A stretch of DNA of 63,936 bases, filler included. It is 10 parts of 10 records of this genome, joined end to end, with 100 filler letters (N's around TTAATTAATTAA, not from the genome) between each part and the next. Parts side by side here need not be neighbours in the genome. Positions count along the whole stretch, not along the records: positions 8,223 to 15,628 come from SRR7504441_2991; 9 more parts are not named here. One strand, 5' to 3'. Positions 8,123 to 52,088 of this stretch are shown one piece after another. Position numbers and translations under genes: made by a program. The notes beneath the pieces were generated by a model that had not been told where the DNA came from, did not search any database, and worked only from the letters and a program-made list of their open reading frames with translations. Each line of letters starts with the position of its first letter. Positions within the stretch are counted from its first letter, which is position 1.

Positions 8123-8222
8123 NNNNNNNNNNNNNNNNNNNNNNNNNNNNNNNNNNNNNNNNNNNNTTAATTAATTAANNNNNNNNNNNNNNNNNNNNNN
8201 NNNNNNNNNNNNNNNNNNNNNN
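8123..8222. other. Artificial contig spacer (N44-TTAATTAATTAA-N44)
   Basis: 100-nt linker with stops in all six frames; identical copies elsewhere in the window. Confidence 0.99.
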
Positions 8223-11810: not shown

Positions 11811-12944
11811 TCACGGGCAATGGAACATTGCACCGGTCGTATGGTTTGTGCACATCATGCTCGAAGGATCCGCCCAACACTTCATCAACCCATCCGCTGG
11901 GGACCCACGGCACGGAATCGCGATCTTTCCGAGCGTAACAAGCTCTTCCGCACTCAGCGAGAAATCGAAAATGTCCAGATTCTCAGCCTGATATTTTGCG
12001 CTGTGCGAGGACGGAATGGGCGAAATGCCCTTATCCAGCAGGAACCGGAGCGCCACTTGCGCCGGCGACTTGGAGTACTTGGTTGCGATCGCGGTGATGT
12101 CGTGCTGGACGCCTGGCGTGATCAGCGCTGGCAGGCTGCGGCTGAGAGGTGTGGCTGCCTGGACCAGTACCCCGTGCGCCTCGCACCAGTCGAGCATAGC
12201 CTGGTCCCACCAGCCGATGTGCGACTCGATCTGATTCACCGCTGGGAGCTCCATCCCTAACTTGCTCATCCGCTCGAGGTTGCGCACAAGCCAGTTCGAG
12301 ACCCCGATCGCACGGACCTTCCCACGAGCCTTGAGCTCACTGAGCGCCCGCCAGCTCTCGTCCTGACAGGTGACCCAGCTGGAGTCCTGTACCGCACACG
12401 GCGGTGGGAGCCACGAGGCCATCCCGGTGGTCCGGTTGTTCAGCGGGTTATCTGAGTAGAGCAAGTTGTCGGGAAACGCAACCATGGATGAGACCACTCT
12501 AGGCCATTCGCCGGCGTCGGCAGCACGGTGGTGGATCATGACCAGATCCAGATAGGACACATTCAGCTGGCCGAGCGAGGCTTCCACCGCGGCGATGGTC
12601 TCGTTGTAGCCCATCAAATACTTTGGCACCATCGACATCATGAATATCTCGGCCCTGCTCACCTCGCTGGCGGCCACCGCGTCGCTGATGGCAGCTCCCA
12701 GTCCGGCCTGGTTGCTGTACGACAACGCGTCGTGGAACGAGCGGTAGCCCAACGAGAGCGCCGAGCGGACCGCGGCGTACCCAGGGCAGGCGTGCTCGCT
12801 GCCGTCGATGTCGGGGTGGCAGGCTCCGCTCGATCCGAGCCCGATGGACGGCATCACTGCACCCCCGCGGAGCGTCACTGTCCGTCCGAGCGGACTAGCC
12901 GCCGCAAGCCCGACACAGAGTACGAGCACCCCTCTCACTGGCAT
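11811..12944 (-). CDS. Aldo-keto reductase family protein with predicted signal peptide, intronless
   Basis: MPSIGLG, GYRSFHDALSY, YLDLVMIH, GKVRAIGVSNW, PAVNQIE, AQVALRF, ENLDIFDFSLS. N-terminus MPVRGVLVLCVGLAAA. Confidence 0.9.
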   Translation of the reverse strand: MPVRGVLVLCVGLAAASPLGRTVTLRGGAVMPSIGLGSSGACHPDIDGSEHACPGYAAVRSALSLGYRSFHDALSYSNQAGLGAAISDAVAASEVSRAEIFMMSMVPKYLMGYNETIAAVEASLGQLNVSYLDLVMIHHRAADAGEWPRVVSSMVAFPDNLLYSDNPLNNRTTGMASWLPPPCAVQDSSWVTCQDESWRALSELKARGKVRAIGVSNWLVRNLERMSKLGMELPAVNQIESHIGWWDQAMLDWCEAHGVLVQAATPLSRSLPALITPGVQHDITAIATKYSKSPAQVALRFLLDKGISPIPSSHSAKYQAENLDIFDFSLSAEELVTLGKIAIPCRGSPADGLMKCWADPSSMMCTNHTTGAMFHCP

Positions 12945-13010: not shown

Positions 13011-14350
13011 ATGAAGTTCGGCAAGCAGCTGGACGCGCACATCAAGGGCTGCGAGTCCCGGCCGATGGACCCGTGCCGCCGAGCAGACTACGTCGACTAC
13101 GGCCACCTCAAGCGCAGGATCCGCCAAGGGCTCTCCGAGGCCGAATTTCAGCAATGCTACAAGGCCGAGCTGGCTCGGTTCACAAACACAATGCGGCAGG
13201 GCATGGCGCGGGACCCGCAATTCGCCGAGATCAACAAAGCCGCGCTGGATAAGATATCCAAGAAGTTCGACCGGCGGCACAACGGCGGAGTCCGTCTCCG
13301 CAACAGGCAGGAGGCGGCAGCGGCGACGGACGCCGCGCTGGCTCGGCTGCAGCTGGATGATCTGTCCGGAGCGGCGGTGCCCGGCGAGCTGGTGCTGCCA
13401 GCGGAGCAGACGCGCCCGCAGGCCGGTTGGCTGGTGTTCGCTGCGGGCGCGTTCTCCGGGGTTGTTTCGCGCTCGCTGACGGCGCCGCTGGACAGGATCA
13501 AGTTGATGATGCAGGCCGGGAACGCGCCGCGCGGGAGCGGGCAGGAGGTGCTGCGCGTGTCCGGGCGGCAGGGCCGGATGCTTGGGACTGGGAGGGTAAT
13601 CTGGGCGAATGGCGGCCTCCGTGGGTTCTGGCAAGGGAACGGTACCAATGTGCTCAAAGTTATGCCAGAGAGCGCCGTTAAGTTCTATGTGTACGACCGG
13701 GTGAAGAGCGCGATTCAGCGCGGGTCTGAACGGCAGCTGAGTATTCCGGAGCGGTTGGCTGCGGGCTCTGTGGCTGGAGGGCTGGCTCAAGTCTGCGTCT
13801 ACCCTTTGGACGTCACAAAGACTCGGCTAGCCGTGTCGTCAGCCGGCACGTATCGGGGGATGTTGCACTGTCTGACGCGGACGGTCGCTACTGAGGGGCC
13901 TCTGGCGCTTTACAGAGGGGTGGGGGTGGCCTTAGCTGCGATAGTGCCAGCGGCTGCGATAGACTTAGCCGTGTACAACACACTGCGTGTGAGGTACGAA
14001 GAAGCCAACCCAGGCCGCCAGATGCCTATTGTCTGCGCTCTAGGGTGACACCGGCGGCCCGGCGAGAGCGCTGACTGCTCGGCAGGTTCGGTGCGGTATC
14101 GGCAGTGTGTGGAGCGGTGGTGGCTTACCCGTTAACAATGCTCCGGACCCGGCTGATTGCGCAGGGGATGCCCGGACGGCCTATCCTGTACGCCAACGCC
14201 TGGGATTGTCTGCGCCAGACCATAGAGCGCGGTGGGCCGAGGGCGCTGTACGCGGGGCTGACTCCTGCGCTGATGAAGGCGGTCCCGGCAGTTAGCATCG
14301 GCTGGGGCGCGTTTGAGAGCGCAAAGCGGACGCTTGAGACGGTCAAATAA
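13011..14350 (+). CDS. SPX-domain / ATP-Mg/Pi-type mitochondrial carrier (SLC25A23/24/25-like) fusion, 1 intron (14045-14085)
   Basis: N-terminus MKFGKQL...YVDYGHLKRRI...EINKAALDKISKKFDRR (SPX hallmarks) is in one uninterrupted exon with SRSLTAPLDRIK, GNGTNVLKVMPE and YPLDVTKTRL; YPLTMLRTRL follows after the intron. Confidence 0.88.
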
Positions 14351-14450: not shown

Positions 14451-15603
14451 ATGATGAGTATGACTGTCGTTATTCTGGATTCGCGTGCAGTGCAACGCGC
14501 AACGCACGAGCAGGGTGGCGGTGGTGCGCGTGGAGGCGCGGCGGCTGGCCGAGCCGCTGCCGCTCGACGAGCTGCCGGAGCCCGTGTCGGTCGATCTCGG
14601 ATGGGCCGGCAGCCGCGGACAGGACGAGCTACCGGAGAAAGCCCCTGTCCCGGCGGGGGTGGGCCCGCTCCTGTTGGCTGGTGGGGTGGCTGGGGCCGCC
14701 TCTCGGACGGCCACAGCGCCGCTGGATAGGCTGAAGGTGATCGTTCAGGCCACCGGAGCCCGGCAGGGGCTGTGGCGCGGGGCTAAGCGGATCTACAGCG
14801 AGGGTGGGGTGTGGGGCTTCTGGCGGAGCAACGGAACTAACGTGCTCAAGGTGGCCCCGGAGACAGCGGTGCGCGCCCTGGCCCGCGCCCGGCTGAGGTG
14901 TACGGCGCAGATTAAGTTCTTTTGCTACGAGCGTATTGTGGCCGGATTAGGCGGGCTGTCCAGGCGGGGCGACGGAGCGGAGCGGCTATCTCCGGCGGTG
15001 ACCAAGCTGCTGGCCGGTGGATTTGCTGGTGTGACTGCTCAGAGCGTGATATACCCACTAGAGATCTTAAAGACCCGCCTAGCTCTGATGCCCAGACGGG
15101 TGGGGCTGCTGGCCACGGCTCGAGAGGTAATTCGGCGGGACGGTGTGCGAGGGATGTACAGAGGACTGCTCCCGTCCACGCTGGGGATATTCCCGTACGC
15201 GTCAATTGACCTGGCAGTGTTCAATACGCTCAAAGACACGTACAAGGCTGAGAATCCACAAATCGAGCCTTCGGTCAGCCTTTTGCTAGCCTTTGGTGCC
15301 TTCTCTTCAACCTGCGGGGCTGTCTTTGCCTACCCTCTGCAGGTGGCCATCCGAGCGGAAGGGTGTTGAGCTGATTGGCAGACTGTTCGGACGAGGCTGC
15401 AAGCGCAAGGGATGCAGAACCACTTTGAGCTGAGGACCGAGCATTACGATGGAATGGTGGATTGCTTCTCCAAAGTGGTCAGGAAGGAGGGCCTAATGGG
15501 GCTTTATAGAGGGCTGCTGCCCAATCTTCTCAAAGTGCTACCCGCTGTGTCGATTAGCTACGCCGTGTTTGAGAAGACCAAGGCCCTACTACTTGCTCGA
15601 TAA
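14451..15603 (+). CDS. ATP-Mg/Pi-type mitochondrial carrier lacking EF-hands; start uncertain, at least 2 introns
   Basis: SRTATAPLDRLK, NGTNVLKVAPE, YPLEILKTRL, PYASIDLAVFNTLK, PNLLKVLPAVSISYAVFE. No in-frame ATG lies upstream, so a further 5' intron (e.g. 14586-14622) is required. Confidence 0.85.
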
Positions 15604-15628: not shown

Positions 15629-15728
15629 NNNNNNNNNNNNNNNNNNNNNNNNNNNNNNNNNNNNNNNNNNNNTTAATTAATTAANNNNNNNNNNNNNNNN
15701 NNNNNNNNNNNNNNNNNNNNNNNNNNNN
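15629..15728. other. Artificial contig spacer
   Basis: N44-TTAATTAATTAA-N44. Confidence 0.99.
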
Positions 15729-20665: not shown

Positions 20666-20765
20666 NNNNNNNNNNNNNNNNNNNNNNNNNNNNNNNNNNN
20701 NNNNNNNNNTTAATTAATTAANNNNNNNNNNNNNNNNNNNNNNNNNNNNNNNNNNNNNNNNNNNN
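20666..20765. other. Artificial contig spacer
   Basis: N44-TTAATTAATTAA-N44. Confidence 0.99.
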
Positions 20766-29341: not shown

Positions 29342-29441
29342 NNNNNNNNNNNNNNNNNNNNNNNNNNNNNNNNNNNNNNNNNNNNTTAATTAATTAANNN
29401 NNNNNNNNNNNNNNNNNNNNNNNNNNNNNNNNNNNNNNNNN
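29342..29441. other. Artificial contig spacer
   Basis: N44-TTAATTAATTAA-N44. Confidence 0.99.
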
Positions 29442-33852: not shown

Positions 33853-33952
33853 NNNNNNNNNNNNNNNNNNNNNNNNNNNNNNNNNNNNNNNNNNNNTTAA
33901 TTAATTAANNNNNNNNNNNNNNNNNNNNNNNNNNNNNNNNNNNNNNNNNNNN
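33853..33952. other. Artificial contig spacer
   Basis: N44-TTAATTAATTAA-N44. Confidence 0.99.
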
Positions 33953-38705: not shown

Positions 38706-38805
38706 NNNNNNNNNNNNNNNNNNNNNNNNNNNNNNNNNNNNNNNNNNNNTTAATTAATTAANNNNNNNNNNNNNNNNNNNNNNNNNNNNNNNNNNNNNNN
38801 NNNNN
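38706..38805. other. Artificial contig spacer
   Basis: N44-TTAATTAATTAA-N44. Confidence 0.99.
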
Positions 38806-43454: not shown

Positions 43455-43554
43455 NNNNNNNNNNNNNNNNNNNNNNNNNNNNNNNNNNNNNNNNNNNNTT
43501 AATTAATTAANNNNNNNNNNNNNNNNNNNNNNNNNNNNNNNNNNNNNNNNNNNN
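43455..43554. other. Artificial contig spacer
   Basis: N44-TTAATTAATTAA-N44. Confidence 0.99.
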
Positions 43555-46774: not shown

Positions 46775-46874
46775 NNNNNNNNNNNNNNNNNNNNNNNNNN
46801 NNNNNNNNNNNNNNNNNNTTAATTAATTAANNNNNNNNNNNNNNNNNNNNNNNNNNNNNNNNNNNNNNNNNNNN
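46775..46874. other. Artificial contig spacer
   Basis: N44-TTAATTAATTAA-N44. Confidence 0.99.
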
Positions 46875-51988: not shown

Positions 51989-52088
51989 NNNNNNNNNNNN
52001 NNNNNNNNNNNNNNNNNNNNNNNNNNNNNNNNTTAATTAATTAANNNNNNNNNNNNNNNNNNNNNNNNNNNNNNNNNNNNNNNNNNNN
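51989..52088. other. Artificial contig spacer
   Basis: N44-TTAATTAATTAA-N44. Confidence 0.99.

Follow-up and report, generated by a model that had tools for sequence, protein, structure and literature searches.

SPX domains are a common receiver of phosphate-status signals in eukaryotes, and to our knowledge their described partners all act at the plasma membrane, the vacuole, the nucleus or in the cytosol. In XPR1, InsP8 stiffens the SPX domain, bridges it to the membrane domain and frees the pathway from a plug (PMC11926068; this and the other papers given by PMC number are cited from the excerpts accessible to us). On mitochondrial carriers, the regulatory domains described in the accessible parts of two papers are only EF-hands, those of the ATP-Mg/Pi carriers (APCs) and the aspartate/glutamate carriers (PMC5369052, PMC7611774). 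Carriers of the SLC25 family consist of three repeats of ~100 residues with the motifs P-x-[DE]-x-x-[KR] and [FY]-[DE]-x-x-[KR] (PMC6283063). Their N-terminus faces the intermembrane space, the site of the APC regulatory domain, and in APCs a linker helix that is let go by the Ca2+-free domain locks the carrier like a 'locking pin' (PMC5369052). Here we describe a two-exon gene, g1 (13011–14350, plus strand), found on a 7.4-kb contig (8223–15628) of a 63,936-nt stretch of DNA, which we call the window. Its 432-residue product joins a domain that we assign to a shortened SPX to a carrier derived, as judged from its sequence, from the APCs. We refer to relatives of the same build as SPX-only carriers and to those that have EF-hands in addition as SPX-EF carriers.

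A shortened SPX domain at the N-terminus

The N-terminal domain of g1 is supported as a shortened SPX domain by profile homology and by structural modelling. It lies at the extreme N-terminus and starts with M-K-F. All three N-terminal motifs quoted in an earlier note on this DNA, which had proposed the fusion from the letters alone, are found in the translation: MKFGKQL at the start, YVDYGHLKRRI at residues 27–37 and EINKAALDKISKKFDRR at residues 73–89, the last including LDKISKKFDRR (79–89). A homologue search limited to residues 1–130 gave one protein only. When the profile of an alignment of ten family N-termini (A1) was compared with the PDB, the top six matches were all SPX proteins (rice SPX2 at 1.7e-3, rice SPX1, XPR1, a fungal SPX protein, SLC53A1 and a SYG1 homologue), as were 12 of the 15 matches at E≤10. 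With hhalign, A1 matched a Phytophthora SPX-RING protein at 97.4% (E 1.2e-11, 94 columns), columns 1–101 of A1 pairing with SPX residues 1–143. At E≤0.01, Pfam recognised SPX in nine of the ten family N-termini (best 4.1e-11), and the Pfam cut-off was passed by P0013 (34.7 bits), P0059 (36.2 bits) and P0052 (28.6 bits).

Structure prediction, which the earlier note had proposed as a check, returned a confident helical model. AlphaFold2 on A1 gave an all-helical prediction with a mean predicted local distance difference test score (pLDDT) of 85.6 and a predicted template modelling score (pTM) of 0.74, followed by disorder. The model comprises five to six helices, at residues 3–15, 30–38, 43–59, 61–67, 71–90 and 94–119. 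What had been read as a short Ala-rich linker is mostly the last of these SPX helices, because residues 94–119 are modelled as helical and align with XPR1 up to residue 194; only residues ~120–140 stand as a disordered linker.

The loop between SPX helices 1 and 2 holds a pair of cysteines (g1 residues 14 and 22; 13050–13076) with variable spacing. The pair is present in 12/21 SPX-only carriers (g1 and its relatives P0002, P0003, P0005, P0006, P0008, P0009, P0045, P0046, P0051, P0053 and P0088) and in none of the five SPX-EF carriers. As a speculation, a disulfide between these cysteines would suit an intermembrane-space location.

Conservation of the ligand-contact residues

The HMMER alignment to XPR1 (5ijh) places Y30 and K34 of g1 opposite Y22 and K26, and K81, K84, K85 and R88 opposite K158, K161, K162 and K165; XPR1 Y22, the partner of Y30, we take to be a ligand-contact residue. 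The InsP8-binding surface of XPR1 seen by cryo-EM is made up of K26, R157, K158, K161, K162 and K165, and the mutants K2A, K158A and K162A-K165A lower phosphate export (PMC11926068, PMC11933459).

Conservation at these positions was scored on 95 distinct N-termini of the family, with gapped rows left out of each count. Y30 is kept in 71/71 rows, K34 in 73/77, K81 in 66/86, K84 in 80/85 and K85 in 82/85, and position 88 is Lys or Arg in 80/82. These residues are among the best-kept columns of the SPX domain in proteins that are otherwise 40–50% identical, a pattern indicating that the Tyr/Lys contact residues are kept under selection. The Tyr/Lys pair and the K-x-x-K-K-x-D-K/R cluster claimed earlier are thus in place in g1 and conserved across the family. 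We infer that the domain may bind inositol pyrophosphates and gate the carrier.

Gene model and integrity of the junction

Both the gene g1 and the fusion, which is conserved, are genuine. Its ATG at 13011 is preceded immediately by an in-frame stop, and the frame is open from stop to stop from 13002 onwards. Since the SPX part and carrier repeats 1 and 2 share this one open frame in exon 1 (13011–14044), the junction lies inside a single exon, as had been claimed. The frame closes at TGA 14046–48, which makes a 41-nt intron necessary; residues 1–354 of the relative P0002 align to 13011–14042 and residues 356–436 to 14087–14329, with one residue missing at the joint. In DNA contigs of the metagenome runs X1 and X2 the intron is present unspliced. 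The carrier had been described as complete with three repeats, and all three were found, the third only across this intron.

Full-length relatives of the g1 protein reach E 1.8e-109, far beyond chance. Marine metagenomes contain almost the same DNA at low depth, and in these contigs, from a near-identical strain, six of the seven differences from g1 are synonymous, the seventh being M19V in a variable loop. The GC content at third codon positions is uniform (0.65–0.84), whether taken for the SPX part, for the carrier part or for the neighbouring genes.

An APC-derived carrier with a remodelled pocket

Pfam finds three Mito_carr (PF00153) matches in g1, two repeats in exon 1 (3.2e-46) and one in exon 2 (1.4e-18). 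The matrix motifs are PLDRIK, PLDVTK and PLTMLR and the cytoplasmic motifs YDRVK, YNTLR and FESAK; an acidic residue is missing from the third of the matrix motifs and from the second of the cytoplasmic ones. There is no EF-hand in the protein, a Pfam scan at E≤1 giving only Mito_carr and SPX. The closest non-SPX relatives are EF-hand plus Mito_carr proteins or fungal Sal1-like proteins, and the carrier domain groups with APCs in trees. g1 keeps 61 of the 73 columns that are near-invariant in 14 EF-hand APCs, compared with 24–41 in four distant carriers. It also keeps 14 of 15 APC-specific columns, specific here meaning common to none of those four outgroups, a data set that contains no sister subfamily of the CoA or ADNT carrier kind.

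The closest solved protein is bovine ADP/ATP carrier AAC1 (1okc; 2.3e-25, the match ending with query 64 at chain 279). Arg154, Lys216 and Lys409 of g1 align with K22, R79 and R279 of AAC. In AAC, three basic residues bind the phosphates, and the Gly, Ile and Tyr of contact point II receive the adenine ring and define the substrate class (PMC7611774). At contact point II, g1 has Ala310-Ile311...Ala314 in place of Gly182-Ile183...Tyr186, and the Gly-Ile...Tyr adenine pocket is therefore not present in it. Gly with Tyr or Phe is retained in at least 13 of the 14 EF-hand APCs, in the five SPX-EF carriers (Gly in five; Tyr in four, Phe in one) and in g2, the carrier gene next to g1. Two further changes mark the SPX-only carriers: the Asn in helix H6 beside contact point III is Ala in 14/21, and the Gln after R-T-R-L is Ile. 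Because the adenine-pocket Gly and Tyr have become Ala, ATP-Mg may not be the substrate of the SPX-only clade. The adenine-nucleotide/Pi exchange claimed earlier is accordingly less safe, and on these residues we class the g1 protein as APC-derived, but not as a strict ATP-Mg/Pi carrier.

Distribution and origin of the fusion

An exhaustive profile search with A1 against 1.84 billion representatives gave 50 proteins at E≤0.001, 27 of them at ≤1e-10; among the 50, Pfam recognised Mito_carr in 20, SPX in 21 and EF-hand_7 in five. A word-index search for longer proteins gave 28 matches, 20 with Mito_carr, the weakest being an oomycete SPX-RING protein. In total, 45 proteins combine the compact SPX with at least 85% of a carrier, a count that takes in the g1 protein and near-identical cluster members. 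Where the N-terminus is present, SPX begins within the first 10 residues in 34/35 family proteins. The family has named members in Symbiodinium natans, Symbiodinium sp. CCMP2456, Durusdinium trenchii, Biecheleria cincta, the choanoflagellates Didymoeca costata and Diaphanoeca grandis, and Picozoa. Full-length relatives also stem from transcript assemblies (MMETSP; EukProt for Biecheleria, Didymoeca and Diaphanoeca), several of them marked complete. Names given automatically to family members include Slc25a23, SLC25A25, SCaMC-1/-2-A and 'SLC25 phosphate transporter 23/24/25/41'. In a scan of 80 metagenome loci, all were generic APC-like carriers and none of the 80 had a compact SPX by six-frame hmmsearch or by tblastn. 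The scan thus yielded no SPX-carrier locus in genomic DNA of a further organism.

Five proteins (P0092, P0097, P0100, P0103 and P0109) contain the compact SPX, EF-hands and the carrier together. They derive from Lotharella globosa (P0100, UniRef A0A7S4DNY2), a cluster with a Picozoa member and metagenome records, and hhalign matches A1 to P0100 at 98.9% (E 1.5e-17, 82 columns). SPX and carrier are separated by a median of 13.5 residues in the SPX-only and 208 in the SPX-EF proteins. The triple-domain build suggests candidates for combined control by Ca2+ and phosphate status.

We built a tree of 46 carrier domains (IQ-TREE, LG+C20, 315 columns), from which 21 near-identical rows had been dropped and three very long outgroup rows left out. 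All SPX-only carriers (21 rows and one N-truncated fragment) fall together in a clade supported at 100/99 that spans dinoflagellates, choanoflagellates and Picozoa, g1 falling in a subclade with dinoflagellate sequences (86/83). The SPX-EF carriers form a second clade (99/93) beside an EF-only brown-alga carrier (96/87). The backbone of the tree did not resolve. Constraining all SPX-bearing carriers together, a group named post hoc, costs 4.85 log-likelihood units and is not rejected by the approximately unbiased test (p-AU 0.396). One fusion followed by loss of the EF-hands and two separate fusions are both possible on this tree. The earlier note had envisaged a direct exchange of the Ca2+ sensor for SPX; this simple swap is not established, because SPX-EF-hand-carrier fusions exist, and the tree fits several routes. 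An EF-hand carrier may first have gained SPX and then lost its EF-hands.

Two further observations concern members of the wider set. P0057 (427 aa) is a compact-SPX relative (E 1.7e-21 to A1) with a sub-threshold PHO4/PiT match (15.3 bits, cut-off 33.7), and PHO4/PiT may be another transporter partner of the compact SPX. The Durusdinium trenchii models P0052, P0054, P0069, P0070 and P0071 are 867–1252 aa long and contain one SPX-carrier unit each, with several hundred extra residues without Pfam matches or with SPX from residue 550; these long models may be merged neighbouring genes.

Proposed mechanism

Taken as a whole, the findings are best explained by a carrier that has a shortened SPX domain, and not EF-hands, as its N-terminal regulatory domain, a reading to which we give a probability of about 55%. 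The SPX domain would face the intermembrane space, as the regulatory domain does in APCs, a compartment that small cytosolic solutes should reach. There it would bind InsP6, InsP7 or InsP8, the reporters of the phosphate status of the cell. Ligand binding would act through the flexible linker, ~20 residues long, and toggle the carrier between a blocked and an active state, in either direction. As cargo we expect some phosphate-bearing anion that is swapped for Pi; with the adenine pocket remodelled, it may or may not still be an adenine nucleotide. We propose this gating by analogy with the InsP8 gating of XPR1 and with the EF-hand and locking-pin control of APCs.

AlphaFold2 on full-length P0002 modelled both domains confidently, with residues 113–137, the counterpart of the g1 linker, below pLDDT 50 and a pTM of 0.63. 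We considered and rejected a homology between the linker and the amphipathic-helix linker of APCs, hhalign giving 0.1%, no better than one reversed and five shuffled controls.

Several results weigh against the proposed SPX-gated carrier. The Pfam SPX (PF03105) score of g1 residues 1–140 is just under threshold (26.8 bits, cut-off 27.8; E 6.8e-06). The same residues, used as a single sequence, found no solved SPX in the PDB. The compact domain is ~40–60 residues shorter than a canonical SPX (in the hhalign match, ~40 residues are missing from the long middle helices), and for this reason it is without the further basic surfaces of XPR1. One contact position, K81, is Asn in 12/86 family rows. 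The AlphaFold2 model of P0002 fixes no SPX-carrier contact, and no basic carrier residues specific to the SPX-only clade were found; there is consequently no sign of a second clamp surface like that of XPR1. With linker homology, a clade-specific basic patch and a predicted contact all absent, no particular docking mode is supported. In the 21 SPX-only carriers, the adenine-pocket Gly position holds 15 Ala, four Ser and two Gly, and the Tyr position 16 Ala, four Val and one Gly. None of four metagenome and metatranscriptome runs contained an RNA contig across the SPX-carrier junction, 13138–13950 being uncovered except for a 32-base piece. Finally, the mitochondrial location, the ligand binding and the transport of the SPX-carrier are predicted only.

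Alternative explanations

The pocket substitutions raise the question of whether the SPX-only clade descends from APCs that have given up adenine nucleotides for another phosphate-bearing anion (Pi, pyrophosphate, another nucleotide or a sugar-phosphate-like compound), still under SPX control. We regard such a change of cargo as unlikely, if worth taking seriously. It would account for the clade-wide replacement by Ala of the Gly and Tyr at contact point II, a site of substrate class (PMC7611774), and for the change from Asn to Ala beside contact point III (14/21); the adjoining g2, with its canonical pocket, could do the adenine-nucleotide job. However, g1 retains all three basic residues for the phosphates as well as the contact-point-II Ile, Ala for Gly is a conservative change, and g1 keeps most of the near-invariant APC columns (61/73), a comparison in which only four distant carriers serve as outgroups.

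A different objection concerns the SPX part, which could be a relic that no longer senses inositol pyrophosphates and instead caps the structure, helps import or assembly or binds other proteins, with the carrier constitutive or regulated in some other way. The shortening of the domain, its sub-threshold Pfam score in g1 and several relatives and the lack of a predicted docking would all fit a relic, and we know of no SPX domain from the intermembrane space. Yet the positions that match the InsP8 contacts of XPR1 are the best conserved of the domain, and at least 94% of rows keep Y30, K84, K85 and the residue type of position 88, although the lineages are only 40–50% identical overall, which makes a loss of sensing improbable in our view. 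Very much less credible is an artefact in which a chimeric contig or a wrong gene model fuses an SPX gene with a carrier gene. The window does consist of short contigs chained by artificial spacers, and coverage is lacking over most of the junction region in the four runs (13138–13950, apart from the 32-base piece), but the junction lies within one uninterrupted open reading frame on one 7.4-kb contig, the composition is uniform, and the fusion recurs in 45 proteins (g1 and near-identical cluster members counted) from several taxa, some of them transcript-derived.

Contig context

The coordinates of the features are collected in Table 1. The spacers resemble artificial six-frame-stop linkers, and the window is ten short contigs chained together, probably taken from a binned or single-cell assembly. 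Since they chain separate contigs, gene neighbourhood across the spacers is not genomic. The contig of g1 has three recognisable genes: an aldo/keto reductase gene, g1 and g2. The close head-to-head spacing of the first two suggests that the genome is very compact. In the tree, g2 stands apart as an APC-like paralogue and is no recent copy of g1, and eight of its ten differences from related-strain metagenome contigs are synonymous. g2 reaches from about 14451 to 15603, but its start codon was not placed, the ATGs at 14451–14460 being in another frame. The three tiny introns of g1 and g2 (41, 42 and 39 nt) all start with GTG and end with GCAG, two of them with GGCAG; introns so short are unusual in core dinoflagellates, the group with which g1 clusters. 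No Rfam families or tRNAs were found in the window.

Table 1. Positions of g1, its domains and the other features of the window.
Feature	Position	Strand	Evidence or remarks
g1 exon 1	13011–14044	+	ATG, SPX, linker, repeats 1 and 2 of the carrier and the beginning of its repeat 3; single open frame, Pfam, relatives align 13011–14042
g1 intron, 41 nt, phase 2	14045–14085	+	GT..AG (GTGACACC...CTCGGCAG); relatives skip exactly 14045–14085
g1 exon 2	14086–14350	+	remainder of repeat 3, stop TAA 14348–14350; Mito_carr 1.4e-18 for 14087–14347; relatives end at a similar place
Compact SPX domain, residues 1–119	13011–13367	+	AlphaFold2, A1 profile against PDB, hhalign, Pfam on relatives
Tyr30...Lys34, helix 2	13098–13112	+	HMMER alignment with XPR1 Tyr22/Lys26 (5ijh)
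Lysine cluster K81-I-S-K84-K85-F-D-R88, helix 4	13251–13274	+	aligned with XPR1 K158/K161/K162/K165
Disordered linker, residues 120–140	13368–13430	+	pLDDT ~50 in the g1 model
Carrier repeat 1, residues ~141–236	13431–13718	+	H1 P-L-D-R-I-K; Arg154, Lys216 (contact point I); Pfam, alignment to 1okc
Carrier repeat 2, residues 242–329	13734–13997	+	P-L-D-V-T-K; contact point II Ala310-Ile311...Ala314 at 13938–13952; Pfam best stretch 242–329
Carrier repeat 3, residues ~340–432, split by intron	14028–14347	+	P-L-T-M-L-R; Lys409 at 14276–14278 (contact point III); Pfam
Aldo/keto reductase gene	11811–12944	-	head-to-head with g1, start codons 66 nt apart
g2, second APC-like carrier gene	at least 14545–15603	+	directly 3' of g1; without SPX, without EF-hand
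g2 introns	14869–14910 (42 nt), 15343–15381 (39 nt)	+	a polyA metatranscriptome contig (run X7) has the 39-nt intron spliced out
Nine identical spacers, 44 N + TTAATTAATTAA + 44 N	8123–8222, 15629–15728, 20666–20765, 29342–29441, 33853–33952, 38706–38805, 43455–43554, 46775–46874, 51989–52088

Implications

We suggest tentatively, and at less than even odds, that the family as a whole (dinoflagellates including coral symbionts, choanoflagellates and Picozoa, and chlorarachniophytes with EF-hands) has an inositol-pyrophosphate receptor in the intermembrane space, that InsP8 gates the exchange of phosphate metabolites across the inner membrane, and that the cargo of the SPX-only forms has shifted off adenine nucleotides. 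If true, this would be the first direct link of SPX and inositol-pyrophosphate signalling to mitochondria, and the first regulatory domain other than an EF-hand on an SLC25 carrier. It has long been asked how the nucleotide and phosphate pools of mitochondria are tied to the supply of phosphate, and an SPX-carrier fusion would make this question directly testable. The family is found in ecologically weighty, phosphate-limited marine protists, bloom-forming and coral-symbiotic dinoflagellates included, and its triple SPX-EF-hand-carrier forms suggest joint control by Ca2+ and phosphate.

Comparison with known systems

No description of an SPX-mitochondrial carrier fusion was found in the literature, judging by titles and abstracts. 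A 2025 census of dinoflagellate SPX proteins distinguishes, in its accessible part, the classes SPX, SPX-EXS, SPX-VTC and SPX-other (DUF202 or CitMHS); proteins were picked by BLAST and by domain calls from two databases at 1e-5 (PMC12388464), a filter that the low-scoring SPX of SPX-carriers would often fail. The available excerpts of plant and algal SPX surveys give no carrier partner (PMC8717665, PMC11528361), and the term SPX does not occur in a review of APC evolution (PMC6283063). The earlier note knew of no characterised example of this architecture. As far as the literature goes this agrees with our searches, but Symbiodinium and Durusdinium entries are in databases as Slc25a23, SLC25A25 and SCaMC. 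The SPX-carrier family combines two known modules and stands in databases under borrowed names, undescribed as far as our searches reach.

The nearest carrier domains to that of g1 are those of the APCs (also SCaMC: SLC25A23/24/25, yeast Sal1 and plant APC1-3). As in APCs, the regulatory domain of g1 is N-terminal and stands ahead of a linker. The third-repeat matrix motif is without an acidic residue in both g1 (P-L-T-M-L-R) and g2 (P-L-Q-T-V-R), as it is in canonical APCs. Unlike APCs, g1 is without the four-EF-hand domain and its linker has no detectable homology to the APC amphipathic-helix linker; it also has Ala at the adenine-pocket Gly and Tyr, Ile for the Gln after R-T-R-L and Ala for the H6 Asn.

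With XPR1/PHO1 (SPX-EXS), Pho87/90/91 (SPX-SLC13), PHT5/VPT (SPX-MFS) and VTC, g1 shares an N-terminal M-K-F SPX on a membrane transporter. Its SPX appears to have the same XPR1-type Tyr/Lys contacts, in those systems likewise joined to a phosphate-handling transporter (PMC11926068, PMC11933459, PMC11528361). The partner fold of g1, in contrast, is SLC25, which is absent from the accessible parts of the SPX surveys (PMC12388464, PMC8717665, PMC11528361). Whereas those SPX domains act at the plasma membrane or the vacuolar membrane, on the cytosolic side, the shorter SPX of g1 (by ~40–60 residues) would likely act in the intermembrane space. Closest to g1 in build are the SPX-EF carriers, which also have the compact SPX at the N-terminus and an APC-type carrier. 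They differ from g1 in still having EF-hands, with SPX and carrier ~200 residues apart, and a canonical Gly/Tyr pocket, and they form a clade of their own.

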